This document shows positions 1,747 to 63,558 of a stretch of DNA of 64,000 bases, piece after piece. Source of the stretch: an uncultured bacterium (GTDB lineage: Bacteria > Patescibacteriota > Doudnabacteria > UBA920); NCBI GenBank assembly GCA_963749445.1, contig CAVVMJ010000010.1, positions 43,913 through 107,912 on the forward strand. Reading direction: 5' to 3'. A program made the position numbers and the translations under genes. The notes beneath the pieces were generated by a model. The model was not told the DNA's origin. It worked only from the letters and a program-made list of their open reading frames with translations, and ran no database searches. How positions within the stretch are numbered: position 1 is the first letter of the stretch; each line of letters begins with the position of its first letter.

Positions 1747-4700
1747 TTATCTTCCAACCAATTTCAGAAGCGTTTTGCGCTTTTTTACCACCGCGAACGC
1801 GCCGACCATCAATCCGGCAAAAACAAAAGCGTTGGTATCCGCGCCGGTCTTGGGGGCCACAAGCGCTCCCAAAACCTGCGGCGTGTTGATGTTAATCGTT
1901 ATCGCGTTGCCGTAAGTGTTGGTCATAACGTAATGCAGATTGCTGGCCAAAAAGTACTTAATGCGCACGCGGAACGATTTGCTCACGCTGCCGCCGGCCG
2001 ACACAGTAATGGGCGGATAGTTGATGACATTGCCGGAAAGCGTGCCGCCGCCGTTGTCACTGATGTCCGCGTAAGGCAGAACCTGGGACAAATCATCCGT
2101 GACCACAAAGTTGGTGGCCGGCGAATTGCCGTTATTGGTTACCGTCAAAGTGTAAGTAATATAGTCTTCTTTGGAAGCCGGCTGTGTGGTAGCGTCAACA
2201 TTTTTGGTATCGTTCCAGGCTTTTTTGGCGTATATCAAATTAACATTGCCGCCGAGCACGTTGCCGTTGCCGTTAACGAAGACCCACGCGTCATCCTGCA
2301 CATTCGGCACGCTGTCGCCGCGGGCGCTGGCCGTGTTTTCAATGCTGGTGCCGCTGCCGGCCACAACCTGGGCCTGGAAAGTCGCGGTAACGCTCTGACC
2401 CGTGGAAAGCGAGCCCAAATTCAGGCTGTTGCCATACCAGTTGCTGCCGGAATTATAACCGTTGTTGTAATTATTATTGTTGTAATAACCGCCGCTGACC
2501 TGCGTGCTGCCGGAAATCCATTGCAGGCCGCTTACGCCCGCGTCGGTCAAAACCACATTATTGACGCTGGCGTTGCCCGTGTTGGTCACGGTAATTTGGA
2601 ACTGTACGGTATCATTCACGTTGGCGCTTACGGTTTTTTGGAACGAGCCGCCCGCCGTAATATTCCTGACCATTTTTTGGATGCCCAACTGCACGTACTG
2701 GTTATACGGTACCGGGTTATTATAGTAGTAAGGATTACTGTTGGACGACGCGTAGTAATAATAGGTGTTGGTCGTATTAGTTACGTTGTGGGAATCCGTA
2801 GTATTGGTTGTGGTATTGGTTACATTGTGGGAGTCTGTGGTATTCGTAATGTTATGCGAATCGGTGCTGTAATTTATATTATGCGAATCCGAGGTGTTGA
2901 TAATATTATTGCAGGAATTGTTTATGCAGGTATTGATGTTGTTTGTATTGCCGCCGTTGTTGTTATTTGAAGCCTGCAAAGTTATGGCGATAGTAGAAAG
3001 CAGCTGGTTGCAGCTTGCATCATACATCTTAAATACATAACTGCCGCCGGCCTGCAAATCGGAAACCGTTTGCTGGCCGTTGGCACCGCCGCTGGCAAAA
3101 GCCAGTTCCGCGGAAGAGCCGGGGTTGATGCGGGTTATGCGGATTTGGTTGGTGCCCGATGAAGCCCAGCTTATGGTTGAGCTGTAAGCGCTCCCGTTAA
3201 TCAGCAAAGCAGGCGCGGAATAGTTTAAGGTTGCGCCGGTATTGGAGGTACAAACCTGCGGCTGCTGCGAGACATGGACGCTGCAGTTAGCAGATTGGCT
3301 GCCGCTGGTCACGGTTACTGTTTTGGTGCCGATTGAAGTGTAAGTGACTCCGCTGAGCGTATTGCCCAAGGCCGTGCCGTAATTGGCGCCGGGATCGGAC
3401 CAGTTATAACTGCCGTTGCCGCCGGTAGCGGTAAAGTTTACGGCTTGATTGGTTTGGACGCTGGTCGGGTTGGCAAAGCAGGTTAAAGTTTGCGGCTGCT
3501 GGATGACGATGTTAACAACCGGACAACTCACGCCGTTGACTGTGGTTATGCCGCTGGTTACGCCGGCATTAAAGCGGGTAAGAAAAGTCGTGCCCTGGCC
3601 GGCAAACGGCACGGCGCTTTGCGCCGACCAAGTGTAGGTCTGGCTGGAAACAGGGTTGCTAATAGCGTAAGAGACCTGGTCAGACGGCGCATTGCTGCTG
3701 CCGTTTACTGTGGAAGGGGAAGTTAACTGGCAAATCGGCTGATTATTAACAGGAGCAGAACATTTAGCCGAAGCCTGGGCGCTGGCATTGGCCTGGGCCT
3801 GAGCCTGGGCTTGCTGCTGGGCCTGGCTTTGCGCCTTGTTTTGCGCGTCGGCTTGGCTGACGTTGCTGGTGGCTGTGGCGCTGGCCGAAGCCGAGGCCGA
3901 AGCCGAGGCAAACGAGCCGTCAGGGCAGGAAGCGCTGGCCGAAGCCGTGGCGCTGGCCGTGGCAGTTGCCGTAAACGTTCCGGGCTGAACCTGGATATTA
4001 ATAGTCACTATCGGACAGCTCACACCGTTAACGGTAACCGTTCCGGTAGATACACCGGCGTTAAAGCGGGTAAGAAAAGTCGTACCCTGGCCGGCAAACG
4101 GCACGGCGCTTTGCGCCGACCAAGTGTAGGTCTGGCTGGAAACAGGGTTGCTAATAGCGTAAGAGACCTGGTCAGACGGCGCATTGCTGCTGCCGTTTAC
4201 TGTGGAAGGGGAAGTCAACTGGCAAATCGGCTGATTAGCCGGAGCCTGGTTAACCAAAACCGAACAATTGGCGCGCTGGCCGTCAATGCTGCTGACGCTG
4301 GCGGTCTGCGTGCCAACGACACTGTAGTTAACGGTATAACTGGTATAATCCGCCGAAGCGTTCGCCGAAGAAGCGTTGCTGGTAGACCAGCCATAAGCGC
4401 GGCTGGTATCGCCGCCACTGGCGGTAAATACAACCGGTTGACCAAGAGTAATCGAGGCAACGTTGGCGCTGCAGGTTAAAGTCGGAAACTGAGTAGGAGT
4501 GCTACCGCAGCTCAAACTCGGCACAGGCACGTATTTATCAATTTGCGGATAACCATCCGCGGTTAAATAGAAATGTACGGTTTTACCGGGAGTCAACCAC
4601 GGGGCGTCTTGTCCTCCGAAGGGGCTGTTGGCAGCCGCTGCAAATAAACTAGGCTGGCCGGTGGAAGTATTAACTACATAGACTTTAACATTGTTTAAAT

Positions 4701-6642
4701 TGGAAGATGTCCAAGTCACGGTGCCGTCATACAAACATTGATTATAAAGCTGGTTGCCTACCTGGACGTTCAAAGTGGCACTACCGGCCGGAGGAGTGGG
4801 CGTACTGCCGCAGCTCAAAGCGGGCACAGGGACATACTTGTCGATTTGCGGATAATTATCGGCAGTCAAGTAAAAATGGACGCTGGTGCCCGGGGTCAAC
4901 CACGGCGCATCCTGGCTGCCACTTACAGCCGCGGCAAACAAACTCGGCTGGCCGGTTGAAGTATTAACCACGTAAACTTTAACATTGTTTAAATTAGAGG
5001 AAGACCAGGTGACAGTGCCATCATATAAACACTGGTTAGCAACCTGGCTGTTAACCTGAACATTTAACGTAGCGGTGCCGGCCGGAGGAGTGGGCGTACT
5101 GCCGCAGCTCAAAGCGGGCACATTGACGTATTTATCAATTTGCGGATAGTTGTCCGCGGTTAAGTAAAAGTGGACAGACGTGCCCGGAGTAAGCCACGGA
5201 GCATCGGAATTCCCCGAAACGGCGGCGCCGACTAAGCTGGGCTGGCCGGTGGAAGTGTTAACCACGTAGACTTTAACATTGTTTAAATTGGAAGATATCC
5301 AAGTCACGGTGCCGTCATATAAACACTGACCGGAAACCTGTCCGTTAAGATTAACATCCAAAGTAGCTGTGCCGGCCGGAGGGGTAGGCGTACTGCCGCA
5401 GCTCAAAGCAGGCACGCTGACATACTTGTCAATTTGCGGGTAACCATCCGCAGTTAAGTAGAAATGGGTGCTGGTGCCGGGAGTGAGCCACGGCGCATCC
5501 TGGCTGCCACTTACAGCCGCGGCAAACAAACTCGGCTGGCCGGTGGAAGTGTTAACCGCGTAAATTTTAACATTATTTAAATTAGAGGAAGACCATGTGA
5601 CAGTACCATCACCCAAACACTGGCCACTAACCTGGCCGTTGTAGCTTACATCCAAAGTGGCGGTGCCGGCCGGAGGAGTAGGCGTACTGCCGCAGCTCAA
5701 AGCAGGCACGCTGACATACTTGTCAATCTGCGGATAACCATCGGCGGTTAAATAAAAATGGGTGGATGTGCCGGGAGTGAGCCACGGGACATCTGCGTTG
5801 CCGCTTGTAGCGGCGCCAACCAAACCAGGCTGGCCGGTGGAAGTGTTAACCGCGTAAACTTTTACATTATCTAAACCTGAAGAAGTCCATGTTACAGTAC
5901 CATCGCCCAAACACTGGCCACTAACCTGGCCGTTATAGCTTACGTCCAAAGTGGCGGTGCCGGCCGGAGGGGTGGGCTGGGTTTGGCCGGTAACGGTAAC
6001 GGTAAAATAAATCAGTCTGATATAACCAAAACACGCCGGCTGGTCAGGCAAAGAAGCCGAAGAGTTTACAAAATTCAAGCTGCCCTGCCCAATGGGATCC
6101 ATATTCGGATCGCCGGTTCTCGCGCGCCATTGCTGGCCGCTGGCCGAAAGCGTTGTGCCGGAAAGCGTATTAATGTACATCTGGCCGTTTAAGGAATTGG
6201 AAGTGTTGTTAGCCGTAACCGAGGCGGAAATCATGTGACTGTCCGATGTGTTACTGTCAACCGTGGCGCTGACCTGTTCGCCGGTAGCCGCGGGGCCGCC
6301 CACGACCGCGCCGTTGTGCACATATAAAACAAATTCCACCTGGTCGCCGGGCTGGGCGCTAATCATATTATTTTCCGTATCGCCCTGCCAATCGCCGACA
6401 GCTTGCCCGTTGCGCACAATCTGGGCGCGCATAAACGGGGCGTCATTACAGCCGCCGCCGGTATGGGAAATTGAGTAAGGATTTAAAATCGGCGTGCTAA
6501 AAGTCGGGGTGCAGTCGGTTTCCGCGTGCAAAGAATTAATAACCCGCGGAGCCGCGGCCAAAACCGTCAAAGATACCGCAAAAAAACTCACCGCTAAAAC
6601 TGCGCCGACCTTGAAATTTAAAACCTGAGTATATTTTTTCAT
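1747..6642 (-). CDS. giant secreted tandem-repeat cell-surface protein (1631 aa) with sortase-type sorting signal
   Basis: N-terminal signal peptide with hydrophobic core. Five 98-aa (294-nt) tandem repeats. A duplicated roughly 90-aa module, Ser/Ala and Asn/Thr low-complexity tracts, and DUF11-like TVTNNGN segments. C-terminus APKTGAD, then a hydrophobic stretch, then KKRK. Confidence 0.75.
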   Translation of the reverse strand: MKKYTQVLNFKVGAVLAVSFFAVSLTVLAAAPRVINSLHAETDCTPTFSTPILNPYSISHTGGGCNDAPFMRAQIVRNGQAVGDWQGDTENNMISAQPGDQVEFVLYVHNGAVVGGPAATGEQVSATVDSNTSDSHMISASVTANNTSNSLNGQMYINTLSGTTLSASGQQWRARTGDPNMDPIGQGSLNFVNSSASLPDQPACFGYIRLIYFTVTVTGQTQPTPPAGTATLDVSYNGQVSGQCLGDGTVTWTSSGLDNVKVYAVNTSTGQPGLVGAATSGNADVPWLTPGTSTHFYLTADGYPQIDKYVSVPALSCGSTPTPPAGTATLDVSYNGQVSGQCLGDGTVTWSSSNLNNVKIYAVNTSTGQPSLFAAAVSGSQDAPWLTPGTSTHFYLTADGYPQIDKYVSVPALSCGSTPTPPAGTATLDVNLNGQVSGQCLYDGTVTWISSNLNNVKVYVVNTSTGQPSLVGAAVSGNSDAPWLTPGTSVHFYLTADNYPQIDKYVNVPALSCGSTPTPPAGTATLNVQVNSQVANQCLYDGTVTWSSSNLNNVKVYVVNTSTGQPSLFAAAVSGSQDAPWLTPGTSVHFYLTADNYPQIDKYVPVPALSCGSTPTPPAGSATLNVQVGNQLYNQCLYDGTVTWTSSNLNNVKVYVVNTSTGQPSLFAAAANSPFGGQDAPWLTPGKTVHFYLTADGYPQIDKYVPVPSLSCGSTPTQFPTLTCSANVASITLGQPVVFTASGGDTSRAYGWSTSNASSANASADYTSYTVNYSVVGTQTASVSSIDGQRANCSVLVNQAPANQPICQLTSPSTVNGSSNAPSDQVSYAISNPVSSQTYTWSAQSAVPFAGQGTTFLTRFNAGVSTGTVTVNGVSCPIVTINIQVQPGTFTATATASATASASASCPDGSFASASASASASATATSNVSQADAQNKAQSQAQQQAQAQAQANASAQASAKCSAPVNNQPICQLTSPSTVNGSSNAPSDQVSYAISNPVSSQTYTWSAQSAVPFAGQGTTFLTRFNAGVTSGITTVNGVSCPVVNIVIQQPQTLTCFANPTSVQTNQAVNFTATGGNGSYNWSDPGANYGTALGNTLSGVTYTSIGTKTVTVTSGSQSANCSVHVSQQPQVCTSNTGATLNYSAPALLINGSAYSSTISWASSGTNQIRITRINPGSSAELAFASGGANGQQTVSDLQAGGSYVFKMYDASCNQLLSTIAITLQASNNNNGGNTNNINTCINNSCNNIINTSDSHNINYSTDSHNITNTTDSHNVTNTTTNTTDSHNVTNTTNTYYYYASSNSNPYYYNNPVPYNQYVQLGIQKMVRNITAGGSFQKTVSANVNDTVQFQITVTNTGNASVNNVVLTDAGVSGLQWISGSTQVSGGYYNNNNYNNGYNSGSNWYGNSLNLGSLSTGQSVTATFQAQVVAGSGTSIENTASARGDSVPNVQDDAWVFVNGNGNVLGGNVNLIYAKKAWNDTKNVDATTQPASKEDYITYTLTVTNNGNSPATNFVVTDDLSQVLPYADISDNGGGTLSGNVINYPPITVSAGGSVSKSFRVRIKYFLASNLHYVMTNTYGNAITININTPQVLGALVAPKTGADTNAFVFAGLMVGAFAVVKKRKTLLKLVGR
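3470..4235 (-). repeat. duplicated roughly 270-nt module (two copies about 490 nt apart) flanking a Ser/Ala/Gln low-complexity tract
   Basis: aagt(t/c)aactggcaaatcggctgatt at about 3721 and 4212. The protein segment APANQPICQLTSPSTVNGSSNAPSDQVSYAISNPVSSQTYTWSAQSAVPFAGQGTTFLTRFNAGV occurs twice. Confidence 0.8.
4497..6003 (-). repeat. five tandem 294-nt (98-aa) repeats inside the surface protein gene
   Basis: Near-identical DNA blocks starting at about 4500, 4801, 5097, 5391 and 5688 (cgtactgccgcagctcaaagc...). The protein repeats begin TPTPPAGTATL and end PALSCGS. Confidence 0.85.
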
Positions 6643-14605: not shown

Positions 14606-14648
14606 AAAAGCCTGTCTAATATCAATTCTGGCCAGAATTGATATTAGA

Positions 14649-15182: not shown

Positions 15183-15213
15183 TGTCTAATATAGTTTCCG
15201 GCCATAAATGATG

Positions 15214-16227
15214 TTAGATAAGATTTTTGCCGTATTGCTGCTTGTAATATTTCTGGTAATCCCCGCTCTTTACTCTTTTCCACCAACCCCGGTTGCTCTG
15301 ATACCAGTCCAAAGTTTTTTGCAAAGATTCGTCCAATCCGTATTTAGGCTGCCAGCCGAGCTCGCGGGTAATTTTGGAATGATCCAACGCGTACTTTTGA
15401 TCATGGCCCGGACGGTCGGCAACGAATTCTATCATTCCATCACTCTGCTTCATCATGACCAATAATTTCCTGATGATTTCCAAATTGCTGAATTCCGGAT
15501 TGTTAGGCCCGATAAAATAAGTCTCTCCCGCTTTGCCTTTTTCTAATATTGTTTCTATGCCGCTGCAGTGGTCTTCCACATAAAGCCATTCACGGATTTG
15601 GTTGCCGGGTTTATAAACCGGAACTTTTTTGCCTTCCAATAAATTGGTAATGGCCAGCGGGATTAGCTTTTCCGGAAACATATACGGGCCGATGTTATTG
15701 GCGCAATTGGAGATGGTTATAGGCAAACCATAGGTGTAATAATAAGCGCGGACAAGATGATCACTGGCCGCTTTGCTTGCCGAATACGGGCTGCGCGGAT
15801 TGTACGGACTCTCCTCTGTCCACTTTGTTTTGGAATCAAGGGGCAGCGATCCAAATACTTCATCAGTAGATACATGATGGAAGCGCTTTACCTGATATTT
15901 GCGGGCGGCTTTAAGCAACTCATGCGTACCAATAACATTTGTCCGGATAAAATCATCAGGGCCGGATATTGAACGGTCAACGTGCGTTTCGGCTGCAAAA
16001 TGGACAACAACCTCAACGCCCTGCATCGCCTTATTGACAGCCGCGGGGTCGCAAATGTCGCCTTTGATAAAAGTTATCTTATCCTTAACCGCAGCCAAAT
16101 TTTCCAAATTGCCGGCATAGGTTAATTTATCCAGCACGACAATTTTGTCGTCCGGATGATTCTTGACCCAATAATGGACAAAGTTGGAGCCAATAAACCC
16201 CGCCCCGCCGGTAATAAGAATCTTCAT
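15214..16227 (-). CDS. rfbB: dTDP-glucose 4,6-dehydratase
   Basis: MKILITGGAGFIGSNF...; YxxxK in YSASKAASD; 337 aa. Confidence 0.9.
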   Translation of the reverse strand: MKILITGGAGFIGSNFVHYWVKNHPDDKIVVLDKLTYAGNLENLAAVKDKITFIKGDICDPAAVNKAMQGVEVVVHFAAETHVDRSISGPDDFIRTNVIGTHELLKAARKYQVKRFHHVSTDEVFGSLPLDSKTKWTEESPYNPRSPYSASKAASDHLVRAYYYTYGLPITISNCANNIGPYMFPEKLIPLAITNLLEGKKVPVYKPGNQIREWLYVEDHCSGIETILEKGKAGETYFIGPNNPEFSNLEIIRKLLVMMKQSDGMIEFVADRPGHDQKYALDHSKITRELGWQPKYGLDESLQKTLDWYQSNRGWWKRVKSGDYQKYYKQQYGKNLI

Positions 16228-17828: not shown

Positions 17829-18629
17829 CTAGGTTAAAATCTTCCACGGGGTGGCTAAAGCAACAATAGTAATCGCCAACGCGACCAAAACTAAGTGAAA
17901 TTGGATTTTTTTGACGGTTAAAGTCTGGAACAAATGGTAGTAGTTTAAAATCAGGCAAAAATAAAACAGGCAAAGCAGTATCAGTCCCTGGGCCGAATAA
18001 TGAAGCGGCAAAAAACTTTCCGCCCAAAACAGCTCGGCGGAAAACAGGCTCAATGCCAGGGCCGCCACCCACTTGGTCTTATCCGGCTGGGGGACAAATT
18101 CGTAAAACGCGCGGCTAAGAAGCAAGGTCACAAAAAATACGCCGAGCAAATAGAGCGGCTGCAGGGAAAACTGCCAGTTGAGCAAATGCCAGCGGCCCAG
18201 ATGCACGGCAATTTGGTGAAAATCCGGAAAAAATTGTCCGGCGGCCGAAAGGCCCAGCAGCAAACCGAAAGCAATCAGCAGCGTTTCATTAATCACCATA
18301 TTTTCCGTGAAATTGCCCAAATTGACTTCCGCCAAAAAAATCACCACAGCCGCGCTGGCCAAAAACCAACCGCGGAACACGGGCGTGGGCAGCATAAAAA
18401 AAATCGCGAAGCCGCTGAAAAACTGCAGCACTGACCGCGTTAAAATCCAGGGGTTGTATTTTTGGACGGACAATAAATATTTTTTGTTATAGTAAGCCAC
18501 CGCGCCGCAAAACAACAAAAAAACCGGCAGCATGATGCGGAACACAGGCTGCGGATTTGACAAGCGCCAAAGGACTGCGGCATACAGCACCCCAATGACG
18601 GCGGAAATTATTTTATGTTTTTGGAACAT
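17829..18629 (-). CDS. polytopic membrane protein (hypothetical)
   Basis: 266-aa ORF with 7-8 predicted TM segments. Confidence 0.4.
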   Translation of the reverse strand: MFQKHKIISAVIGVLYAAVLWRLSNPQPVFRIMLPVFLLFCGAVAYYNKKYLLSVQKYNPWILTRSVLQFFSGFAIFFMLPTPVFRGWFLASAAVVIFLAEVNLGNFTENMVINETLLIAFGLLLGLSAAGQFFPDFHQIAVHLGRWHLLNWQFSLQPLYLLGVFFVTLLLSRAFYEFVPQPDKTKWVAALALSLFSAELFWAESFLPLHYSAQGLILLCLFYFCLILNYYHLFQTLTVKKIQFHLVLVALAITIVALATPWKILT

Positions 18630-19482
18630 TGCGGTAAAGATATATCAAAACGCAAAAACTTATTGCGGCCAGGAGCAAACTGACCAGAGCGTTAAGTCGG
18701 AAAGCCCCAATAAAAGTACTGTCAATTCTTAAAAACTCCAAACAAAATCTCAGTAAATTATACAATAAAAAATAAGAAAAAGCAACGAGCCCCGCTTTTT
18801 GTTTCTTGCCGATTTTGAGCAAAAAAATCAGGATAAAAGTATTGCCCACGACTTCATACAAAAACCAAGGGTGAAAAAAATTATAATTGACAAAAATTTC
18901 CGGACGGAATTGCAATGGCACAAACATTTTCCAGGGCAGGTTCGTTGGATAACCGAATGCTTCGTAATTAAACAGGTTGCCAAAACGGCCGATAATTTGG
19001 CCTAGCAAAACACACGGCGCGAGCCAGTCTAAAAGAGGGCTAAGGGCTAAGGGTTTAGGGCTAAGTCTCCGATAAATTTCTAATATCAAAATGCCGCCGA
19101 GGACAGCGCCGTAAATGGACAAGCCGCCGTTCCAGACTTTAAAAATATCGATCGGATATAGCCGGTAATACCCAATGGACGAAAGCACGTGATATAATCT
19201 GGCCCCGATGAAACCGCCAATAATCACCCAAAATAAAATATCCTCGGCTTGCTTTGGGGTTATCCCAAAAGTCGATGATCTTTTCATCGCGAGATAAAAG
19301 CCGGCCGCCGCCGCAGCTGCCATTATAAGCCCGTAATAATGAATGGTAACCAACCCGATACGGAAGTATTGGGGAAGAATTATACGACCAGAAAAGACGC
19401 GTTGCAAAAAGAAAACCAAGGCTATCAAACTCGCGCCAACTAGCCTAATAATGACCTTCCTCGATTTTGAGGCAAGAAGCAT
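18613..19482 (-). CDS. lgt: prolipoprotein diacylglyceryl transferase
   Basis: Lgt signature IGRFGNLFNYEAFG and multi-TM topology. Carries an in-frame short repeat insertion encoding LSPKPLALSP. Confidence 0.8.
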   Translation of the reverse strand: MLLASKSRKVIIRLVGASLIALVFFLQRVFSGRIILPQYFRIGLVTIHYYGLIMAAAAAAGFYLAMKRSSTFGITPKQAEDILFWVIIGGFIGARLYHVLSSIGYYRLYPIDIFKVWNGGLSIYGAVLGGILILEIYRRLSPKPLALSPLLDWLAPCVLLGQIIGRFGNLFNYEAFGYPTNLPWKMFVPLQFRPEIFVNYNFFHPWFLYEVVGNTFILIFLLKIGKKQKAGLVAFSYFLLYNLLRFCLEFLRIDSTFIGAFRLNALVSLLLAAISFCVLIYLYRNVPKT

Positions 19483-19528
19483 GAAGTAAGAGTCAAGGAA
19501 CTTAATTCTTAACTCTTGATTCTTGCCT

Positions 19529-20110
19529 CTAGAACAATGCCGCCTGATGCTTCACTCCCACCCGCGGCGCGGCGTCCGCGATTTTCAGCGGTATTTCTTT
19601 GGTCTTAAAAAAATCTTTATACAGCAGCTTTTGGTTTTTTAACGCGTAATCGTAAATTTGTTTGGTGATTTTTACGTCGTCGGTGCAATATTTTTTAAGC
19701 AAATCCATTCTTCCGTTTTTGTAATACAAAAGCGCCTCCAGCCCGCTGCCGGACTTGCCGCTGCCCAGCGTACCCTGGGCCACCAGTTCCAATTTTATCC
19801 GGTGGTGCAAAACCTTTTCAATTTCCGCGAGCAAATCCAAATACGGAACCTCGTCTATATTAAAATTTAAATAAGGTTTTAAAACCTCAAAATCAAAATC
19901 TTTTATGTTATAACCGATAATCTGGTCTGCGGTCTGTAAAATCGGCGCCAGCCTATTAAGCTCGTGCTCTTCGTAAGCTGTATATTTGTCGGTGCTGTAA
20001 TCGTAAATTACGCAAACACTCACCTTTAACAAATGGTTCTTCCCCCGCCCCCCTACATCCTGGAAAGATTTCTGGGTTTCAAGATCTAATACAATCTTTT
20101 TTAAAAACAT
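19529..20110 (-). CDS. RNase H-like 3'-5' exonuclease (YprB/PolB-exo-like)
   Basis: DEDD-type motifs LDLETQ, YNIKDFDFEVL and CTDDVKITKQIY. Confidence 0.5.
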   Translation of the reverse strand: MFLKKIVLDLETQKSFQDVGGRGKNHLLKVSVCVIYDYSTDKYTAYEEHELNRLAPILQTADQIIGYNIKDFDFEVLKPYLNFNIDEVPYLDLLAEIEKVLHHRIKLELVAQGTLGSGKSGSGLEALLYYKNGRMDLLKKYCTDDVKITKQIYDYALKNQKLLYKDFFKTKEIPLKIADAAPRVGVKHQAALF

Positions 20111-25815: not shown

Positions 25816-26012
25816 ACGGCCGGAAACGCTTATCTAGGCAACTGGTTATAAGAAGCCTGCGGACTGGACGGCACTTCCTGTTTGAGCTGAACTTTTTGGC
25901 AAGCGGCCGCCAAAAGCGACAGTAAAACCAAAACCAAAATCAATTTCCTTTTACCCATATTATAAATCCCTTGTCTAACATCATTTCCGGCCGGAAATGA
26001 TGTTAGAGTAAA

Positions 26013-26774
26013 TTAAATCAATAGCGCCGCGCCCAAAGCTCCAGCGTTCTTTAATTGCGAAACCAAAATTTCAGTCTCGGCATTTTTGTCGAAAAGATAC
26101 TGACGCATCTCTAACTTCGCCGCGGGCAAATACTTTTTGCTTTGGTCGCTGCCGAATCCGCCCCCGATAATGACGGCATCGGCCGCGAAAATATTTATAA
26201 AAGACGCCAGTGCTTTGCCGACCACTCTGCCTACCTGCTTATAATCTTTCTTGTCCCGAAACCGCTTGAAAGCCGCTTCAAAAAACTCCTCGCCCAAAAC
26301 TATGTGCCCAAGCTCGGCGCCAAAATTGTTTTCGCCCCGATACAGCCGCCTGTTAATCACAATCCCGCCGCCGATGCCGGTACCCAAAGTCAAAGCCAAA
26401 AAATTTTTGAATTTTCTCCCCTGCCCCAACATCAGTTCCGCCCGGGCAAAACAGTTGGCGTCATTGTCAACCCTGACCCTTTTTATGCCGTTTAATTTAA
26501 GCAGCTTGGCTAAATTTAAATCACGGATAAATTTTATATTCGGGGAATGCCTGACCATGCCATTTTTCTGATCTACCAATCCGGCCATGCCCGCGCCGAG
26601 GCCGGAAATTTTTCGCTTTGCTGACAAAAAATCCGCGAGCTTGATGATGTTCCGCTCAAACTCAAATAAATTTTTCGGGGTCACAACTGTCAGCTCGTCA
26701 ATGATTTTTTTACCGTCATAAACAATGCCGGTGATTTTAGTGCCGCCGATGTCAATTCCTATAATATTTTTCAT
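26013..26774 (-). CDS. ROK/BadF-type sugar kinase (ASKHA ATPase)
   Basis: MKNIIGIDIGGTKITGIV phosphate-1 motif; DNDANC and GTGIGGGIV motifs; no ROK zinc motif. Confidence 0.6.
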   Translation of the reverse strand: MKNIIGIDIGGTKITGIVYDGKKIIDELTVVTPKNLFEFERNIIKLADFLSAKRKISGLGAGMAGLVDQKNGMVRHSPNIKFIRDLNLAKLLKLNGIKRVRVDNDANCFARAELMLGQGRKFKNFLALTLGTGIGGGIVINRRLYRGENNFGAELGHIVLGEEFFEAAFKRFRDKKDYKQVGRVVGKALASFINIFAADAVIIGGGFGSDQSKKYLPAAKLEMRQYLFDKNAETEILVSQLKNAGALGAALLI

Positions 26775-36960: not shown

Positions 36961-37056
36961 TTTAATAAACATAGTAGCGTCATCCTGAGGAGTGCACCCG
37001 ACGAAGGATCTCAAACACGGTTAAAAGATTCTTCGTCCCCCAGATGCATTCGGGAC

Positions 37057-38421
37057 TCAGAATGACGCCCTTGATAAATAATCTCCGATAATTTGCCTGG
37101 TTTCGTCCAGGTTTTTTGTTTGCATTAGCTTGGCGCGTAGCTCGTGCGCGCCGGCAAAACCGGAACAATAAGCTTTAAAATGCTTGCGCATAATCGCGAA
37201 TGATTTATTTTTGCCAAGTTCCCGGTCAAACAGTTCCGCGTGTTCCAGCATGACGCGGAGGCGTTCTTTTATGTCCGTCTGGTAATTATCATCGCGAAAT
37301 ACCCAAGGGTGCCCAAACGCTCCCCTGCCGATCATTACGCCGTCGCAACCCGTCTCCGCGACGCGCGCCAGCCCTTCCTCGCGCGACTTAATGTCGCCAT
37401 TCCCGATAATCAAAGTCTTAGCCCTTAGCCCTAAAACCTTAGCCCTGATATTCACCGCCTCGGCAATCTTGTCCCAATGCGCCGGAACTTTGGACATTTC
37501 CTGTTTGGTACGGCCGTGCAAAATCAGCGCCGCGATGTCCATCGCGAGCAAATTTTCCACCCATTTTTCCATCTCCGATGTTTTGCTGTAGCCGATGCGG
37601 GTTTTGACTGATATCGGCACCAAAACCACCTCCCCCCTCGGCTTCGCTCGGGGTACTCCTCCTTGAAAAGGAGGAGAGCTCCGCACTTTATCCGATAACG
37701 GGGACAATTGCGGAGCCTCCCCTCCTGTTAAGGAGGGGTGTCCCGCGGAGCGGGACGGGGTGGTTGGAGATTGCACGGATTGTCCCGACAGCCACCCTTC
37801 TTTTGTCGCGCTGATGATTTCCCAGGCGAGTTTCGGTTCGCGGATAAGCGCCGCGCAAGTCCCGCCCGCAATTTCTTTTTGCTGCGGACAGCCCATATTA
37901 ATGTCAATGCCGTCAAATTTTAAATCGCGGATGATTCGCGCGGCCTCTTTAAATTTTTCCGGGTCGCGCCCCCACAACTGCGCCACAATCGGTCTCTGCG
38001 CTTCGCTGTATTTTAAATCGATGGATAAATTTTTCCTGCCTTCCGGATGCGTCAACCCGTCCACGTTTATAAATTCCGTGAACGTAACAAAATTATTACC
38101 ACCTCCCCCGCCTTCGGCGGGTACTCCTCCTATGAGAGGAGGAGAGCTCCGCAAAATATTCGAGGATAACCGCGGAGCGCTCCCCTCCTTTTTTGAGGCC
38201 TTGATGAAGGCAAAGGAGGGGTGGCTCGCGCAGCGAGACGGGGTGGTACTTCCACTTTTAACTTTTAATTTTCCACTTTTAACTTGCCCGCCATAGCGGG
38301 CCACCATCTCCCGAAACGCAAAGTCAGTGACTTGCTCCATCGGAGCCAAGCAAAATATCGGTTTCTTTAAATTATTCCAAAAATTATTCATTGCGCAAGC
38401 AAACGACCTCTCTGTCGCCAA
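37057..38421 (-). CDS. tRNA-dihydrouridine synthase (Dus family; specific paralog not determined) carrying three in-frame repeat-element insertions
   Basis: CLAPMEQVTDFAFREMV, DINMGCPQQKEIAGGTCAAL and IGNGDI motifs. At 454 aa versus about 330 expected. Inserts correspond to family F1 copies at 38098-38240 and 37625-37766 and a short TTAGCCCT repeat at 37416-37451. Confidence 0.8.
   Translation of the reverse strand: MATERSFACAMNNFWNNLKKPIFCLAPMEQVTDFAFREMVARYGGQVKSGKLKVKSGSTTPSRCASHPSFAFIKASKKEGSAPRLSSNILRSSPPLIGGVPAEGGGGGNNFVTFTEFINVDGLTHPEGRKNLSIDLKYSEAQRPIVAQLWGRDPEKFKEAARIIRDLKFDGIDINMGCPQQKEIAGGTCAALIREPKLAWEIISATKEGWLSGQSVQSPTTPSRSAGHPSLTGGEAPQLSPLSDKVRSSPPFQGGVPRAKPRGEVVLVPISVKTRIGYSKTSEMEKWVENLLAMDIAALILHGRTKQEMSKVPAHWDKIAEAVNIRAKVLGLRAKTLIIGNGDIKSREEGLARVAETGCDGVMIGRGAFGHPWVFRDDNYQTDIKERLRVMLEHAELFDRELGKNKSFAIMRKHFKAYCSGFAGAHELRAKLMQTKNLDETRQIIGDYLSRASF
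37625..37766. repeat. palindromic repeat family F1, copy A (module order 1 then 2), inside dus
   Basis: CCACCTCCCCCC..GGGGTACTCCTCCttgaaaaGGAGGAGAGCTCCGC ... GCGGAGCCTCCCCTCCtgttaaGGAGGGGTG..GGGACGGGGTGG. Confidence 0.85.
38098..38285. repeat. palindromic repeat family F1, copy B, plus adjacent tandem TTCCACTTTTAACTT x2, inside dus
   Basis: Same module structure. Module 2 is nearly identical to the copies at 62499 and 63405. Confidence 0.85.
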
Positions 38422-38768
38422 AAACGATATTATTCTAAAAATTTTGGCGACATCTCCCCTCGCCAGGGGAGAATAATAATGAAGAATCTATCGCGAAATC
38501 CGTCACCTCTTCCATCGGCGCGAGGCAAAATATCGGTTTTTTTAGTTGTTGCCAAAAGTTGACAAACATATATTTATAACATAGCTGCCATCCCGAGGAG
38601 TGCAGCCGACGAGGGATCTTTCACATAGTTTAAATCAAAAACCGCGCTGATGCAATCGGTGCGGTTTTTGAACGTTTGATGATAATCGATGATTATTTAG
38701 GGGATCCTTCGGCCGCCTGTATAATTCTGATGACGGCCTCGGGATGAATTTGAAATAACAATGCTGTG

Positions 38769-48171: not shown

Positions 48172-48732
48172 TCAAAGCCCATTTTTTGCTTCTAAAACGT
48201 TTAACTGTAATGATTTTTTTATCTCTTCCAGCGCTATTTGTTTGTTTTCTAAACTTTTAACCTCTGTCACTTTGTTTTTCTGTCGGCCCACTTCGCGGTA
48301 AAAGGCCGTGCATTTTTCCAAAAAGCCCGGCGGCAAATTATCAGCGTCAAGATATTTACCGGCAAGTTCGTCGTCCAGAGGCACAACAATAATTTTATCA
48401 TCCACTTCGCCGCGGTCAATGGTTTTTAACATACCGACCGCTTTGCACTTCACGAACTCGCCCATCTTAATCGGCGCGGATGACAAAACTATGGCGTCCA
48501 AAGGGTCACCGTCGCCGCCCAAAGTGTGCGGAATGAATCCGTAATTAAAAGGAAAAACCAAATCCTTAAATACAAAATCCAATTTTAAACTGTCTGAGGC
48601 TTCGTCGTACTCGTACTTTAAATTACTCCCTTGCGGAATTTCCACAATGACGTTAAAAGCCTCCAAACTGCCAAAAGGAATTTGTTCCAGATTAATTTTG
48701 TCATTTTTATTATTTTTACTCATTTTTGTCAT
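48172..48732 (-). CDS. ppa: soluble inorganic pyrophosphatase (family I)
   Basis: Core region FNVIVEIPQGSNLKYEYD...LDFVFKDLVFPFNYGFIPHTLGGDGDPLDAIVL. Confidence 0.85.
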   Translation of the reverse strand: MTKMSKNNKNDKINLEQIPFGSLEAFNVIVEIPQGSNLKYEYDEASDSLKLDFVFKDLVFPFNYGFIPHTLGGDGDPLDAIVLSSAPIKMGEFVKCKAVGMLKTIDRGEVDDKIIVVPLDDELAGKYLDADNLPPGFLEKCTAFYREVGRQKNKVTEVKSLENKQIALEEIKKSLQLNVLEAKNGL

Positions 48733-50138
48733 TACCCAATTATTCCGCCGCCAACGCACACTTTACCCTTATATAATACCAAACTCTGCCCCGAAGCGAC
48801 AGCTTTTTGGGGATCTTTAAAGGTTACGCGATAAAGGCCATTTTTAATTTTGTCGATAGTTAGCGGCACCAGTTGGCCCTGGTGGCGGTAGCGGCCAACT
48901 AGGGCTAAGGGTCTAGGGCTAAGAGCTAAGTCGCTTTTGCTTAGCCCTATAACCTTAGCGCTTAGCCCTGTTTGCCCAATCCAGTTCACGCTATAAATTT
49001 GTACTTCTTTCGTCATCAGATTTTCGTCATCCGGATTATTTGTAACGTACAACGCATTGCTCTTTAAATCTTTTCTTACCACATAATACGGCCCGCCGGC
49101 GCCAACATGAATTCCCTGCCGCTGGCCGATGGTATAGTTAAATAATCCCTGATGTTGGCCGATTATGTTTCCTGAAATTGCAAGTGCAGCCGACTTGTCC
49201 GCCGAAGCTTCAGCGAAGGTGGAAGCAATCCCGTCTTTTATGGGATTGCCACGTCGCCCCTCCGGTGCAGTCGGGGCTCCTCGCAATTTCAAATCAGAAG
49301 AAACAAGAACAATCGGACCCGGTTTTGGCTTTAACCTCTGTTCCAAAAAATCTTTTAATCTTATCTTGCCGACAAAGCACAGTCCCATACTCTCTTTTTT
49401 CTCGGCGTTGGGCAGATCGATTTTCCGCGCCAGCGCGCGCACCGCCGATTTTTTCATCCCGCCGATGGGAAACAACAAATGCGGCAGCTGGTGGGTTTTG
49501 ATGTTATAGATAAAGTAGGTCTGGTCTTTAAATTCGTCGATACTGCGCATAAGACCATACCTAACTCCAACCTCCTCCCCCGCCTGACGGCGGGTACTCC
49601 TCCTTAAAAAGGAGGAGAGCTCCGCGGAGCCGCCAAGAACATCTGCAGAGCCTCCCCTCCTGCCAAGGAGGGGCGTCTGCGAAGCAGACGGGGTGGTATG
49701 AATCTGCGCGTAATGGCCGGTGGCCAAATAATCAAATCCGTTTTGCATTGCCCAGTTATACAAAAGTTTGAACTTGATTTCCTTATTGCACATCACGTCC
49801 GGGTTGGGGGTGAGGCCTTTTTTGTATTGGTCAAAAAAATAACGCATCACGTTTTTTTGGTACTGTTTTTCAAAATCCAAAGTATGCAGCGGAATTCGCA
49901 AAAACGCGGCCACGCGCAGCGCGTCCTGGCGATCTATTAGCCACGGACATTCGTTTTTTAAAAGCCCGGCCGTGGAAGACCAATTCTTCATAAACGCGGC
50001 CTCAACTTCGTAGCCCTGCTTAATCAGCAAATACGCCGAAACCGCGGAATCAATCCCGCCTGACAGGGCGATTAAAACTTTTCGTTTCTTAACTCCCCCT
50101 CTTTTGAAAAGAGAGGGCTGGGGGAAGTTCTTTTTCAT
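48732..50138 (-). CDS. mnmA: tRNA-specific 2-thiouridylase MnmA carrying in-frame repeat-element insertions
   Basis: PP-loop LIALSGGIDSAV; KDQTYF; C-terminal domains. The F1 copy at 49566-49700 encodes a 46-aa insert. A TTAGCCCT repeat at 48901-48972 encodes ALSPRPLAL. A mini-hairpin sits at 50091-50130 near the N-terminus. Confidence 0.85.
   Translation of the reverse strand: MKKNFPQPSLFKRGGVKKRKVLIALSGGIDSAVSAYLLIKQGYEVEAAFMKNWSSTAGLLKNECPWLIDRQDALRVAAFLRIPLHTLDFEKQYQKNVMRYFFDQYKKGLTPNPDVMCNKEIKFKLLYNWAMQNGFDYLATGHYAQIHTTPSASQTPLLGRRGGSADVLGGSAELSSFLRRSTRRQAGEEVGVRYGLMRSIDEFKDQTYFIYNIKTHQLPHLLFPIGGMKKSAVRALARKIDLPNAEKKESMGLCFVGKIRLKDFLEQRLKPKPGPIVLVSSDLKLRGAPTAPEGRRGNPIKDGIASTFAEASADKSAALAISGNIIGQHQGLFNYTIGQRQGIHVGAGGPYYVVRKDLKSNALYVTNNPDDENLMTKEVQIYSVNWIGQTGLSAKVIGLSKSDLALSPRPLALVGRYRHQGQLVPLTIDKIKNGLYRVTFKDPQKAVASGQSLVLYKGKVCVGGGIIG
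49566..49700. repeat. palindromic repeat family F1, copy C, inside mnmA
   Basis: CCTCCTCCCCCGCC..GGGTACTCCTCCttaaaaaGGAGGAGAGCTCCGCGGAGC ... CTCCCCTCCtgccaaGGAGGGG..GACGGGGTGG. Confidence 0.85.
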
Positions 50139-52784: not shown

Positions 52785-52851
52785 TATTTTGTATTAAGAA
52801 GTACGGCAACTTTCTCCCTTAACTCTTAACTCCTAATTCTTAACTCTTGTC

Positions 52852-53154
52852 TTACTCTTTCATCATATTGCCGAACTTGCTTTGCAGCATTTTTTTATGA
52901 TGCTTAAACAAATCCTCCAGGGCCGAGCGAATGTGCCGCGCGATTTCGCTTTTGTCGCCGGCAATGTCCGGGCTGACTTCCACGCTTTTAACGTTTTGGT
53001 TGCCGTCAATGATTAAAACGATTTTGCCGCCGGACGATTTGCCGCTCACGGTTTCCACTGCCAACAGGCTTTCCATCTGCTTGGCCTGCTTGCGCATTTC
53101 GTTAATATCCTTTAACTTGTCAAAAATTCCCATAAAATAATTTTTTAATGACAA
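52852..53154 (-). CDS. ybaB: nucleoid-associated protein YbaB/EbfC
   Basis: 100 aa; central SSGGKIVLIIDGNQNVKSVEVSP pattern. Confidence 0.8.
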   Translation of the reverse strand: MSLKNYFMGIFDKLKDINEMRKQAKQMESLLAVETVSGKSSGGKIVLIIDGNQNVKSVEVSPDIAGDKSEIARHIRSALEDLFKHHKKMLQSKFGNMMKE

Positions 53155-56398: not shown

Positions 56399-57691
56399 TC
56401 AACTTGATTTTAAATATAAAATCAAGTTTTCTTTATTTACTATTGATTCTACCGACGTTGCCAAGCTTTTGACTTTAAACTTTTCACTTTTAACTTCCTC
56501 TTCGCCGACCACCAGCACGTACGGGATTTTTTCCCTGTCCGCGGTTTTGACCTGGGCGGAAACTTTTTTATCGGTAAGGTCAACGGCCACATTCACCCCT
56601 TGCTTTCTAATGTAGTCTGCCAATTTATTGGCCTCTTCGATATATCCTTCAAGATGACAAATGTACAGTTTTACCGGCGGATGATATTCGGGCAACAAAT
56701 CATAAGTCTCCAAAAAATCCCGCGTGGTCACGTCGCCCCAACCAAAGCCGATGCCCGAAACTTTTTCCACGCCAAAAATCCCGACCAAATCATCGTACCT
56801 CCCGCCGCCGAACAACGCGCGGGGGTTTTTGGGATTGGTATCGTACATTTCAAACACCGTGCCGGTGTAATAGTCAAAGCCGCGGGTTAAAGGAAAGTGA
56901 AATTTGATATTTTTTATTCCCTTATCATTTAATATTTTAAATATTCCGATGAACGATTTTACTTCGGGATTATGTCCAAACTCTTTTACCATGTATTCCA
57001 TTGTCAAAGTTTGTATCAGCTTATCAAATTCAAACGCTTTCTCTCTTGACCCAACTATTTCCGACAGGGCATCAACAAACTTATTAGGATCCAATTTATC
57101 TGATTTATCCAACAATTTCATAAACTTATGTTCTTGTACTTCTGACCATTTGTGTAATTTTGCAAACTCTTTTAAAATTTTGCGGCTGTTTATTCTTATC
57201 TCAAAATTTTCATCCTTTGCCCCAAACGCCTTCATAATATCATAGGCGAGCGATATTATTTCCACATCAGCCTCAATTGAATCCACGCCGAACAAATCGC
57301 AGTTCAGCTGCCAGTGTTCGCGCAAACGGCCGCGCTGGGGGCGTTCGTAACGAAATAAGTTCGGGATAGAATACCAGCGCAAAGGAAAAGTTAATTCTTT
57401 GCGCTTTTGCGCCACCATACGAGCCACGGTTGGCGTCATCTCGGGACGAATGGTTACATCGCGACCGCCGCGATCAGTAAAAGAGTAAGTTTGCTCGTTG
57501 ACGATTTCCTCGCCGGTTTTAGCACGGTACAAATCCGTCTCTTCCAAAATAGACGCGCCGTATTCCAAATAACCGTAGCTTTCCGCCACTTTTTTCCATA
57601 TTGAAAAAATGTAATTTTGCACGAACTGGTCCTGCGGATAAAAATCCCTCGTGCCTTTGTAGGGCTCCAAACTTAACTTTTTTTGTGTCAT
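56399..57691 (-). CDS. hisS: histidyl-tRNA synthetase
   Basis: Class II motifs, RYERPQRGRLREHWQ and anticodon-binding C-terminus. Confidence 0.9.
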   Translation of the reverse strand: MTQKKLSLEPYKGTRDFYPQDQFVQNYIFSIWKKVAESYGYLEYGASILEETDLYRAKTGEEIVNEQTYSFTDRGGRDVTIRPEMTPTVARMVAQKRKELTFPLRWYSIPNLFRYERPQRGRLREHWQLNCDLFGVDSIEADVEIISLAYDIMKAFGAKDENFEIRINSRKILKEFAKLHKWSEVQEHKFMKLLDKSDKLDPNKFVDALSEIVGSREKAFEFDKLIQTLTMEYMVKEFGHNPEVKSFIGIFKILNDKGIKNIKFHFPLTRGFDYYTGTVFEMYDTNPKNPRALFGGGRYDDLVGIFGVEKVSGIGFGWGDVTTRDFLETYDLLPEYHPPVKLYICHLEGYIEEANKLADYIRKQGVNVAVDLTDKKVSAQVKTADREKIPYVLVVGEEEVKSEKFKVKSLATSVESIVNKENLILYLKSS

Positions 57692-57772
57692 AATGAAAAA
57701 TCCTTACTTAAAATATAGCAAAGATAAGGATTTTTTACAATGATTGATGTCACGACGTTGTTGCTTAGGAAA

Positions 57773-57930
57773 ACTGCGGAGCATTCCCCTCCTATTCCCA
57801 GAATATCATCAGAATATAGGAGGGGTGTCGCCCGCAGGGTGACAGGGTGGTAAATACAGGTTGCCGATGTCTACCACCTCCCCCTGCTAGTGCAGGGTAC
57901 TCCTCCTGTTCCAGGAGGAGAGGCTCCGCA
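57773..57930. repeat. palindromic repeat family F1, copy D (module order 2 then 1), intergenic
   Basis: GCGGAGCATTCCCCTCC..GGAGGGGTG..GGGTGGTA - spacer - TACCACCTCCCCC..GGGTACTCCTCCtgttccaGGAGGAGAGGCTCCGC. Confidence 0.85.
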
Positions 57931-62491: not shown

Positions 62492-62498
62492 CAAACCC

Positions 62499-62647
62499 GC
62501 GGAGCACTCCCCTCCTTTTTTGAGGTCTTGATGAGCACAAAGGAGGGGTGGCTCGCGCAGCGAGACGGGGTGGTATTTATCGTTGATTCTACCACCTCCC
62601 CCCGCTTCGCGGGGTACTCCTCCTTTTCAGGAGGAGAGGCTCCGCAA
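62499..62647. repeat. palindromic repeat family F1, copy E (module order 2 then 1)
   Basis: Module 2 is identical over about 78 nt to copy F (63405-63480). Confidence 0.85.
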
Positions 62648-63362: not shown

Positions 63363-63404
63363 AAGATTATAAATAGTTTTTATACTACGGTTTTAAGGAA
63401 TATC

Positions 63405-63558
63405 GCGGAGCACTCCCCTCCTTTTTTGAGGTCTTGATGAGCACAAAGGAGGGGTGGCTCGCGCAGCGAGACGGGGTGGTATTATCATAGCGAGTATTTA
63501 TACCACCTCCCCCCGACAAGTCGGGGTACTCCTCCTATGATAGGAGGAGAGGCTCCGC
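63405..63558. repeat. palindromic repeat family F1, copy F (module order 2 then 1)
   Basis: CGCGGAGCACTCCCCTCCttttttgagg..GGAGGGGTGGCTCGCGCAGCGAGACGGGGTGGTA - spacer - TACCACCTCCCCCCGAC..GGGGTACTCCTCCtatgataGGAGGAGAGGCTCCGCGG. Confidence 0.85.

Follow-up and report, generated by a model that had tools for sequence, protein, structure and literature searches.

In-frame copies of a structured palindromic element in the tRNA-dihydrouridine synthase gene of an uncultured Doudnabacteria genome, and their putative relationship to a DUF559 nuclease cassette

The gene encoding tRNA-dihydrouridine synthase (Dus) in an uncultured member of the Doudnabacteria (Patescibacteriota; UBA920) contains, in frame, two copies of a palindromic repeat that we designate F1. 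Here, we describe a computational analysis of the 64,000-nucleotide stretch that carries this gene (assembly GCA_963749445.1, contig CAVVMJ010000010.1, positions 43,913 to 107,912; hereafter the window, with coordinates counted from its first letter) and of related loci in other genomes. We propose that F1 is a dispersed, structure-defined palindromic element of approximately 130-150 nt, composed of two inverted modules, A and B, whose copies would land throughout Patescibacteria genomes, while essential genes would retain only those copies that are in frame, free of stop codons, and lodged within structurally permissive loops. The two Dus copies would then be transcribed and translated with the gene as disordered loops rich in proline, glycine, and serine, yielding a protein of 444-454 amino acids. 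More weakly, the data suggest that F1 copies may be non-autonomous, gene-less relatives of a cassette encoding a DUF559 endonuclease, that this enzyme, perhaps acting on hairpin or cruciform DNA, may spread or maintain them, and that a ring-like structure opened at stem P1 or at stem P2 may account for the two permuted forms of the element. Taken as a whole, this explanation of a dispersed, structured palindromic element that survives in genes as in-frame loops and is related to DUF559 has, in our estimation, a probability of about 0.75.

The Dus open reading frame (ORF) is unusually long, and the additional sequence is accounted for largely by F1. Pfam family PF01207 matches the ORF with an E-value of 1.1e-57 (196 bits), as two separate stretches, and relatives of known structure in the PDB are 1vhn and 6ei9. 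The closest of these, 1vhn of T. maritima, aligns in three blocks (query residues 25-48, 136-197, and 269-447), and the gaps between the blocks coincide exactly with the extra sequence. The copies designated E2 and E1 occupy positions that we term site 1 and site 2, respectively (Table 1); both are devoid of stop codons and the conserved Dus motifs on either side of them share a single frame, two of these motifs, DINMGCP and IGNGD, being invariant columns of the ortholog alignment. Removal of E1, E2, and the adjoining spacers (approximately 118 residues) leaves approximately 326 residues, the normal size of a Dus protein. One spacer, AT-rich and internally duplicated, adjoins E2 and occurs in none of the aligned Dus orthologs, and eight further extra residues (212-219) precede E1. 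Comparison with orthologs suggests that translation probably begins not at TTG but at the ATG at 38391 (MNNFWNN...), which would give a protein of 444 amino acids. A first-pass annotation of the window had attributed the excess length to three repeats translated in frame. Recomputation of the exact frames confirmed that E1 and E2 are intact and in frame, and both copies were recovered with refined boundaries; the third repeat, a TTAGCCCT heptamer, adds only about 4-6 residues, in a loop (site 3) that is variable across all orthologs, and the spacers contribute to the length as well.

Comparison with orthologous loci supports the reading of both segments as insertions that are polymorphic among orthologs rather than ancestral. 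The nearest Dus homologs, which are 292-462 amino acids long, all belong to Patescibacteria, some of them labelled Doudnabacteria. In six homolog loci for which DNA was at hand, the gene order DUF218-L10-L12-Dus is the same and is followed by a conserved protein of approximately 680 amino acids encoded on the opposite strand; because of this shared order, we regard the homologs as Dus orthologs. Syntenic orthologs without either F1 copy are 320-347 amino acids in length. Thus L003 (347 amino acids) and L006 (338 amino acids) have no F1 at site 1 and are empty at site 2; L002 is empty at site 1 and carries F1 at site 2; L001 and L004 carry other types of repeat at site 1 and F1 at site 2; and L005, L088, and L118 carry F1 at site 1, with site 2 empty in L005 and L118. 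Site 1 is also empty in P0003, P0010, and P0020. In further orthologs, unrelated repeat-derived peptides are found at sites 1 and 2 and at two additional sites. Since varied families of repeats occupy the same loops, these loops are permissive hot spots that have been entered repeatedly.

These comparisons bear on two explanations that require no mobile element. If the extra segments were ancestral, lineage-specific loop expansions of a Dus subfamily, one would expect features such as the site-2 insert shared by four orthologs at the same position and the variable length of sites 1 to 4 in many relatives. This explanation is nonetheless barely credible, because syntenic orthologs at 56-62% identity lack the inserts, different families of repeats lie in the same loops of different orthologs, and the same sequence family is found in intergenic DNA and in unrelated genes, where the copies are not fragments of Dus. 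That the insertions are chimeras produced by repeat-induced misjoins is a natural concern for a metagenome-assembled genome (MAG) with many short repeats, but it is exceedingly improbable: F1 occupies the same Dus site in L001 and L002 (both from Logan) and in L004 (JGI), and site 2 is filled in four independent assemblies from differing samples and sources; a misjoin would not be expected to preserve both frame and synteny; and an identical protein is recorded in NCBI and ENA.

The predicted structure of Dus places the inserts where the fold should tolerate them best. AlphaFold2, supplied with an alignment of 120 sequences, returned a confident TIM barrel with a C-terminal helical domain (predicted template modeling score, 0.79; predicted local distance difference test score, pLDDT, of at least 90 for 303 residues). 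Apart from the N-terminal residues 1-7, only the two inserts were modeled with low confidence; within them, residues 56-106 and 223-255 score below 50 and have no secondary structure. Site 1 joins the helix of residues 34-44 to the strand of residues 111-114, site 2 joins helix 196-211 to strand 270-277, and site 3 is likewise a helix-to-strand connection (316-333 to 337-341). In (beta/alpha)8 barrels, the C-terminal strand ends bear the catalytic residues, and the loops that lead from helix to strand are found on the face opposite to these. The inserts are therefore predicted to sit away from the catalytic face, in surface loops as anticipated by the first-pass annotation, and the model indicates that a folded (beta/alpha)8 barrel is compatible with both of them.

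Six F1 copies (E1-E6), each 130-165 nt long, were found in the window by repeat finding, and they share an elaborate architecture. Module A consists of ACCACCTCCCC, a variable hairpin (H1), GGGTA, a hairpin H2 (CTCCTCCT/AGGAGGAG), and AG-GCTCCGC; module B consists of GCGGAGC, a hairpin H4 (CCCCTCCT/AGGAGGGG), TG, a variable hairpin H5, and GGGGTGGT, and is a diverged reverse complement of module A. Together the modules form six helices, P1, H1, H2, P2, H4, and H5. As single strands, F1 copies fold into multi-branched structures with energies between -76 and -88 kcal/mol; relative to dinucleotide shuffles, their z-scores range from -4.7 to -8.2. In the genic copies of the window the order is A-L1-B, where L1 is a linker: P1 (ACCACC/GGTGGT) is the closing stem at the host gene and P2 (GCTCCGC/GCGGAGC) closes a loop of 19-25 nt. 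In the intergenic copies the order is B-L2-A, with P2 outermost and a loop of 14-19 nt closed by P1. The two forms are thus circular permutations of one six-helix wheel, and their terminal inverted repeats differ correspondingly: the genic form has (CTCCA)ACCACC...GGTGGT(TGGAG), the intergenic form GCGGAGC...GCTCCGC. No flanking direct repeat was detected at the ends of 13 full copies, ends which are not exactly defined.

The helices of F1 are maintained by compensatory change. A covariance model was built on a local-hairpin structure set by hand, and 17 distinct Patescibacteria copies were aligned to it. Two other sources of structure had been discarded: RNAalifold on a MAFFT alignment missed P2 and H5 owing to errors of register in that alignment, and the single-sequence minimum free energy fold of L075 preferred a rod-like pairing of A with B. 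Counted on the model alignment (17 best-strand rows), compensatory double changes occur in all helices, one or more in each, and H1 and H5 differ freely in sequence with pairing kept; a pair in H1, for example, is CG in 6 rows and AT, TA, and GC in 3 each, and one in H5 is GC in 11, CG in 4, and AT in 1, although such counts lean towards the structure because the alignment was fitted to the covariance model. Evidence independent of this alignment comes from the raw sequences, in which the H1 stems include CCCACC/GGTGG, CCCAGC/GCTGG, CCCCGC/GCGGG, CCCGCC/GGCGG, and CCCTGC/GCAGG. The H1 stems vary over 83 distinct sequences, with long variants of 33-53 nt. Also independent of it are the orthologous site-2 copies, between which both halves of a stem have switched together, H4 from CCCCTCCT/AGGAGGGG to CCTCCCCT/AGGGGAGG and H2 from CTCCTCCT/AGGAGGAG to CTCCCCCT/AGGGGGAG.

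F1 corresponds to no RNA family in Rfam. A scan of the whole window at gathering thresholds returned three tRNAs only, and a permissive scan of the Dus inserts returned chance-level matches (serC, Vault, and microRNAs). An integron attC identity was considered and rejected by eye. The R''/R' core sites of attC have the form RYYYAAC ... GTTRRRY; the ends of F1 are ACCACC/GGTGGT or GCGGAGC/GCTCCGC, and the linker sequence GGATAAC does not fit RYYYAAC.

F1 and its in-frame behavior extend well beyond the window. An exact-pattern scan for module A in one genome per species yielded more than 111 stretches; among the matches listed are cultured Bacteroidota (Bacteroides, Mediterranea, Flavipsychrobacter, Salegentibacter, and Plebeiibacterium), many Patescibacteria (Doudna-, Woese-, Roizman-, and Saccharibacteria), a Marinimicrobia MAG, and a Gammaproteobacteria MAG. 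The earlier proposal, made by analogy with Rickettsia palindromic elements (RPEs), of an independently evolved element in an apparently unrelated lineage is thus qualified, as F1 is not private to one lineage. In the window, E3 splits the HUP domain of MnmA, where PF03054 is matched as two stretches, and in other Patescibacteria F1 lies in frame within genes for DUF6580, GrpE, pyruvate phosphate dikinase (PPDK), an IleRS-like class I synthetase, and ArgRS, with Pfam homology on both sides of the element. Counting the two Dus sites and MnmA, there are at least eight separate in-frame insertions; the in-frame entry of palindromic elements reported in the first-pass annotation, on the model of RPEs, is therefore recurrent.

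What is conserved in these insertions is not the peptide. The same module is read in different frames across genes and across Dus orthologs (RSSPP..GGVP..GGGG, SPP.KEEYP..GEVV, and LSSF.RRST..GRW); as three element frames are used, the constraint acts on the nucleic-acid hairpins rather than on their translation. Neither strand of the conserved stems includes a stop triplet, but the loops and linkers do contain stops. This property was entertained as the main explanation for in-frame residence and set aside: over 16 copies, 37 of 96 frames are open versus 21.5 expected from shuffles, a modest enrichment, and all six frames are closed by stops in two of the three intergenic copies in the window, E4 and E6 (E1-E3 have two to three open frames each). 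The suggestion that the element itself selects for in-frame insertion is therefore the poorer explanation, and the simplest reading is that selection among insertions accounts for the genic copies; we infer that it acts as a filter on them. Because frame and openness are maintained in genes and not in intergenic copies, the Dus inserts are, with good support from the sequence comparisons, probably translated. As for direction, eight genic copies, either verified or likely, run as reverse complement of B followed by reverse complement of A, and the opposite direction is found in PPDK (verified) and in L084 (an unverified ORF). Such an orientation bias is suggestive and not significant, and we make no claim for it.

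The same observations weigh on two alternatives, removal of the segments at the RNA level and co-option. A self-excising or processed element, whose removal would leave a mature Dus mRNA encoding a protein of normal length, would explain why the structure is so stable and covarying, as expected for a functional RNA, and why host sequence is joined at the ends of the closing stem P1. An excised element, however, would be free of constraint on frame and stop codons, and all verified genic copies are in the host frame and stop-free, in three element frames, whereas intergenic copies contain stops; in addition, no Rfam family matches, ribozymes and introns included, and the modules also occur singly and permuted. 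We consider excision very improbable. Somewhat less remote, though still improbable, is co-option, in which mRNA hairpins bearing AGGAGG would tune translation or mRNA stability, or Pro/Gly-rich loops would be functional, and selection would keep the hairpins. Consistent with it, compensatory changes occur at the same Dus site between species whose Dus proteins are 59-68% identical, and the H2 and H4 stems include the Shine-Dalgarno-like AGGAGG; yet many close orthologs do without the inserts, the peptide frame differs between orthologs (GGVP..GGGG versus KEEYP..GEVV), and intergenic copies are equally conserved. A dispersed element filtered by selection remains the preferred reading.

A candidate partner for F1 emerged from the loci retrieved by the module A pattern, in which a small ORF with the N-terminal motif LRxxLTPAExxLW adjoins the module. 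Pfam assigns this ORF to DUF559 (PF04480), which has a Vsr-like PD-(D/E)XK nuclease fold, at 1e-29 to 1e-33. The order of the cassette is fixed: the reverse complement of module A ending in ...GGAGGTGGTTGGAG, then the ATG and ORF of DUF559, its stop codon, and directly the CTCCAACCACCCC... of the reverse complement of module B. In three of three Patescibacteria loci, the ATG lies 1-5 nt after GGTGGTTGGAG and the stop codon abuts CTCCAACCACC. Two of the three free-standing cassettes in Table 1, L158 and L159, were retrieved via the DUF559 protein and not via the repeat pattern, and the outer stem of L159 reads GTGCAGT/ACTGCAC, a covarying change. The DUF559 gene exactly fills the loop of P1, the position taken by the short L2 linker in E4-E6, and the intergenic copies of the window therefore look like gene-less cassettes. 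Furthermore, the site-2 insert of L001 corresponds almost base for base to the modules of the L158 cassette, one half to the downstream module and the other to the upstream one. Three DUF559 proteins, P0135, P0142, and P0150, are each encoded on one NCBI/ENA contig of 372,259 bp, and a contig of equal size carries a protein identical to the window Dus; the source genome thus very probably encodes all three outside the window. On these comparisons, DUF559 would be the likely mobilizing or maintaining partner of F1.

In Bacteroidota, the cassette itself appears to behave as the F1 copies do. In L007, L008, L059, L063, and L080, the entire arrangement of reverse-complemented module A, DUF559, and reverse-complemented module B forms an in-frame part of long Eco57I/MmeI/Type ISP restriction-modification ORFs and divides the Pfam domains of the host, for instance between TPREIVNYMVDESL and ILDPACGSGAF in L063 and at approximately profile position 185 of Type_ISP_C in L007. 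Homing endonucleases include Vsr-like PD-(D/E)XK enzymes, and the in-frame splitting of host domains by a module-DUF559-module cassette resembles the habit of homing endonucleases and inteins. The cassettes differ from these in that Pfam identifies only DUF559 and MTES_1575 within the Bacteroidota cassette, with no Hint or splicing domain, in that no intron-like RNA family is present, and in that the Dus copies have no nuclease gene. Apparent DUF559 fusion architectures in Bacteroidota may thus be selfish in-frame insertions, and the chance that the DUF559 cassette constitutes a new class of selfish element is substantial. A bolder and tentative proposal, to which we give less than even odds, is that F1 is the miniature form of an undescribed cross-phylum selfish element, with a DUF559 gene in one loop of a covarying six-helix DNA or RNA, whose ring could be opened at P1 or P2 to give the permuted forms; its full-length form, in restriction-modification genes of Bacteroidota, and its gene-less form, in housekeeping genes of Patescibacteria, would both insert in frame, and it would be a DNA-level counterpart of an intein without splicing, the host tolerating an extra loop or domain. 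In the literature, we found no description of such elements in the Candidate Phyla Radiation/Patescibacteria, nor any account of a cassette bounded by repeats that carries DUF559. One study lists both DUF559 proteins and Eco57I proteins as enriched among predicted targets of programmed inversion (PMC9881135), which is compatible with inverted modules around DUF559, modules that are not described there.

The principal competitor for the role of mobilizing enzyme is a transposase. Repetitive extragenic palindromic (REP) sequences, with the bacterial interspersed mosaic elements (BIMEs) and REPINs that they form, resemble F1 in being short, imperfect palindromic modules in alternating orientation with variable linkers, conserved in structure more than in sequence; they lack target-site duplications, and none is visible at the ends of the F1 copies. 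F1 modules could accordingly be of this type, moved by an IS200/IS605-like Y1 transposase (REP-associated tyrosine transposase, RAYT) encoded elsewhere, with DUF559 genes as passengers in a repeat-rich safe haven. Single modules as well as head-to-head and tail-to-tail pairs with non-conserved linkers, as for REPs in BIMEs, the lack of a visible target-site duplication, as for IS200/IS605 and REPINs, and the conserved hairpin structure all fit this scheme. It is nevertheless unlikely. The GTAG/CGTC tag of REP heads, as given in PMC3733652, is absent from the 17-copy alignment, in which the modules begin with ACCACC and GCGGAGC; many F1 copies reside within genes, in contrast to the extragenic REPs and REPINs; no Y1 transposase is present in the gene lists of related loci, which cover small parts of the genomes; and it is DUF559, a nuclease in place of a Y1 transposase, that fits the P1 stem exactly in three of three Patescibacteria loci.

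Several findings weigh against the reading of F1 as a DUF559-related element whose genic copies are in-frame survivors. Neither a target-site duplication nor a precise filled/empty pair between close strains was found, and movement of F1 is therefore putative. The genic copies have the permuted order A-L1-B and are not cassettes minus their gene, which calls for an extra, unexplained step, and a motif scan of the 64-kb window detected no DUF559 motif. Genic copies were recognized by means of a spanning ORF, such that gene-breaking copies would be scored as intergenic, and the statement that genic copies are always in frame is thus partly circular. Translation of the inserts, moreover, is deduced from sequence, and the intact hairpins at site 2 could result from repeated re-insertion or gene conversion rather than from selection. 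Finally, the reading frame is broken in three Dus orthologs from metagenomes. The break falls in the site-1 repeat region of L143 and L148, and at a more downstream point in L123; the cause may be misassembly of repeats, or the genes may be genuinely disrupted by a repeat or pseudogenes.

Among known systems, RPEs offer the closest behavioral parallel. Like F1, they are dispersed palindromes of approximately 100-150 bp in a small genome with no transposase encoded in the element; a large fraction of them lie in frame in unrelated housekeeping genes (three of the six F1 copies in the window are genic), at points where the fold tolerates them. In the portion of a 2024 review of transposable elements of the miniature inverted-repeat type (MITEs) that summarizes Ogata et al. 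(2000, 2002), R. conorii is given 44 RPE insertions, nearly half of them within ORFs, and each RPE is reported to encode a conserved peptide (PMC10969869). That review presents Rickettsia as the outstanding case of palindromes routinely found within protein-coding genes and offers no mechanism for their spread; its passages on RPEs mention no nuclease partner. Unlike RPEs, F1 resides in a different phylum, is GC-rich and apparently unrelated in sequence, has no conserved peptide frame, and possesses a covarying six-helix architecture, two permuted forms, cross-phylum modules, and a link to DUF559. The likeness is one of behavior, and we claim no homology.

Other translated repeats offer further comparisons. 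MITEs known to lie in frame, such as ERIC, Correia/NEMIS, the Anabaena MITEs, and Coxiella QMITE1 (PMC10969869), share with F1 small size, lack of autonomy, terminal inverted repeats, the extension or interruption of ORFs in frame, and a longer gene-carrying relative; they differ in that F1, at whose ends no target-site duplication was seen, has a far more elaborate internal structure and a longer relative encoding DUF559 and not a DDE transposase. Palindromic amphipathic repeat coding elements (PARCELs) are tandem repeats coding for amphipathic modules of surface proteins, in Mollicutes as well as in some eukaryotic microbes (PMC2996958). They too are translated palindromic repeats in distant lineages, but F1 occurs as single insertions in housekeeping enzymes, and the constraint on it lies in the nucleic acid.

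If Patescibacteria possess a second, apparently unrelated system, the entry of palindromes into genes is not an oddity of Rickettsia, and since F1 brings both DUF559 as a candidate enzyme and a structure that is defined and covaries, it would render the question of mobilization testable. Patescibacteria proteins that are 30-40% overlong or have split Pfam domains may carry such repeats, rather than being products of pseudogenes or new architectures. Similarly, the fusions of DUF559 with restriction-modification proteins in Bacteroidota may be selfish insertions and not functional combinations of domains.

Table 1. Positions of the Dus ORF, F1 copies, other repeats, and DUF559 cassettes (window coordinates unless a locus is named)
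Feature	Position	Strand	Description	Basis
Dus ORF	37057..38421	-	454 aa from TTG	ORF listing, Pfam, synteny, AlphaFold2
E1 (F1)	37624-37764	-	Dus site 2, residues 220-266, TTPSRSAGHPS...PRGEVV	Families D6, D9; covariance model, 122.6 bits
E2 (F1)	38098-38247	-	Dus site 1, residues 59-108, TTPSRCASHPS...AEGGGGG	Families D5, D6, D13; covariance model, 128.7 bits
E3 (F1)	49567-49700	-	In frame within MnmA (ORF 48732..50138, 468 aa)	Covariance model, 121.2 bits
E4 (F1)	57767-57929	+	Intergenic, permuted B-L2-A, outer stem GCGGAGC/GCTCCGC	
E5 (F1)	62490-62645	+	Intergenic, permuted B-L2-A; starts at the stop codon of a PfkB-family kinase gene	
E6 (F1)	63396-63558	+	Intergenic, permuted B-L2-A, between two LiaF-TM paralogs	
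AT-rich, internally duplicated spacer QVKSGKLKVKSGS	38248-38286	-	39 nt, 13 residues, adjoins E2	Sequence
TTAGCCCT heptamer repeat, three copies	37416-37451 (also given as 37418-37446)	-	Encodes AKVLGLRAK at variable Dus site 3	
Different palindromic element	36977-37068	.	Arms GCGTCATCCTGAG / CTCAGAATGACGC, inner GACGAAGGATCT hairpin	Inverted repeats I8, I9
Diverged partial copy of the Dus 5' end MFVNFWQQLKKPIFCLAPMEEVTDFA	38492-38560	-	75% identity	Direct repeat D12
Free-standing DUF559 cassette (Doudnabacteria)	L075:2100-2720			
Free-standing DUF559 cassette	L158:1580-2070			
Free-standing DUF559 cassette	L159:1440-1925			

Both ends of the Dus gene bear traces of further repeats. At the 3' end, a palindromic element that is not F1 (Table 1) provides the TGA stop codon and the final three codons (A-S-F), and the ortholog L004 has an identical ...ASF ending. 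At the 5' end, a diverged partial copy lies 175 nt upstream of its functional counterpart (38317-38385), with hairpins (TCTCCCCTGGCGAGGGGAGA; TGTCGCCAAAA...TTTTGGCGACA) between the two; this fragment is closer to the N-termini of L003, L148, and L149 than is the present Dus N-terminus. A similar in-frame N-terminal duplication (SNFWQKLNKP...NFWK.LGKP) surrounds another insert in L005, L121, and L124. Some insertions near the Dus 5' end seem to duplicate tens of bases of their target. Direct repeat D15 (38255-38285, with weaker copies at 52823-52853 and 56466-56496) was considered as a fourth mobile family and rejected, as the copy in HisRS lies within ordinary HisRS sequence; its similarity is probably one of AT-rich composition. 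Small genes for 23S_rRNA_IVP (PF05635) and GIY-YIG proteins recur near Dus in L001, L005, and L006 and may be further small selfish genes with hairpin flanks of their own.

The TTAGCCCT heptamer occurs 12 times in the window versus 2.2 expected, a number reached in none of 100 shuffles, and owing to its length of seven, consecutive units fall in different frames. The ortholog L119 has VLGLRAK at the same site 3. Outside Dus, three in-frame heptamers (19036-19064, LSPKPLALSP) are found in the gene for prolipoprotein diacylglyceryl transferase (Lgt; ORF 18616-19551), and a palindromic cluster of the heptamer is in frame in MnmA at 48901-48969. MnmA contains in all three in-frame repeat insertions of three families: F1, this cluster, and a composite palindrome at approximately 49180-49290 that encodes ...STFAEASADKS....

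The window holds additional repeats. Tandem paralogs encoding small LiaF-TM membrane proteins (62994-63362 and 63562-63906) flank E6 and have a 50-nt repeat, D16, in common. An AT-rich palindromic family unrelated to F1, TTGTCTAATAT...GGCC...ATATTAGAC, is present at 14609-14655, 15179-15225, and 25968-26014. Lastly, a minus-strand ORF of 1631 amino acids (1747..6642) contains about five tandem units of 294 nt (72-89% identity) within 3499-5947, together with a 247-nt repeat pair, and its product is probably a repeat-domain surface protein.

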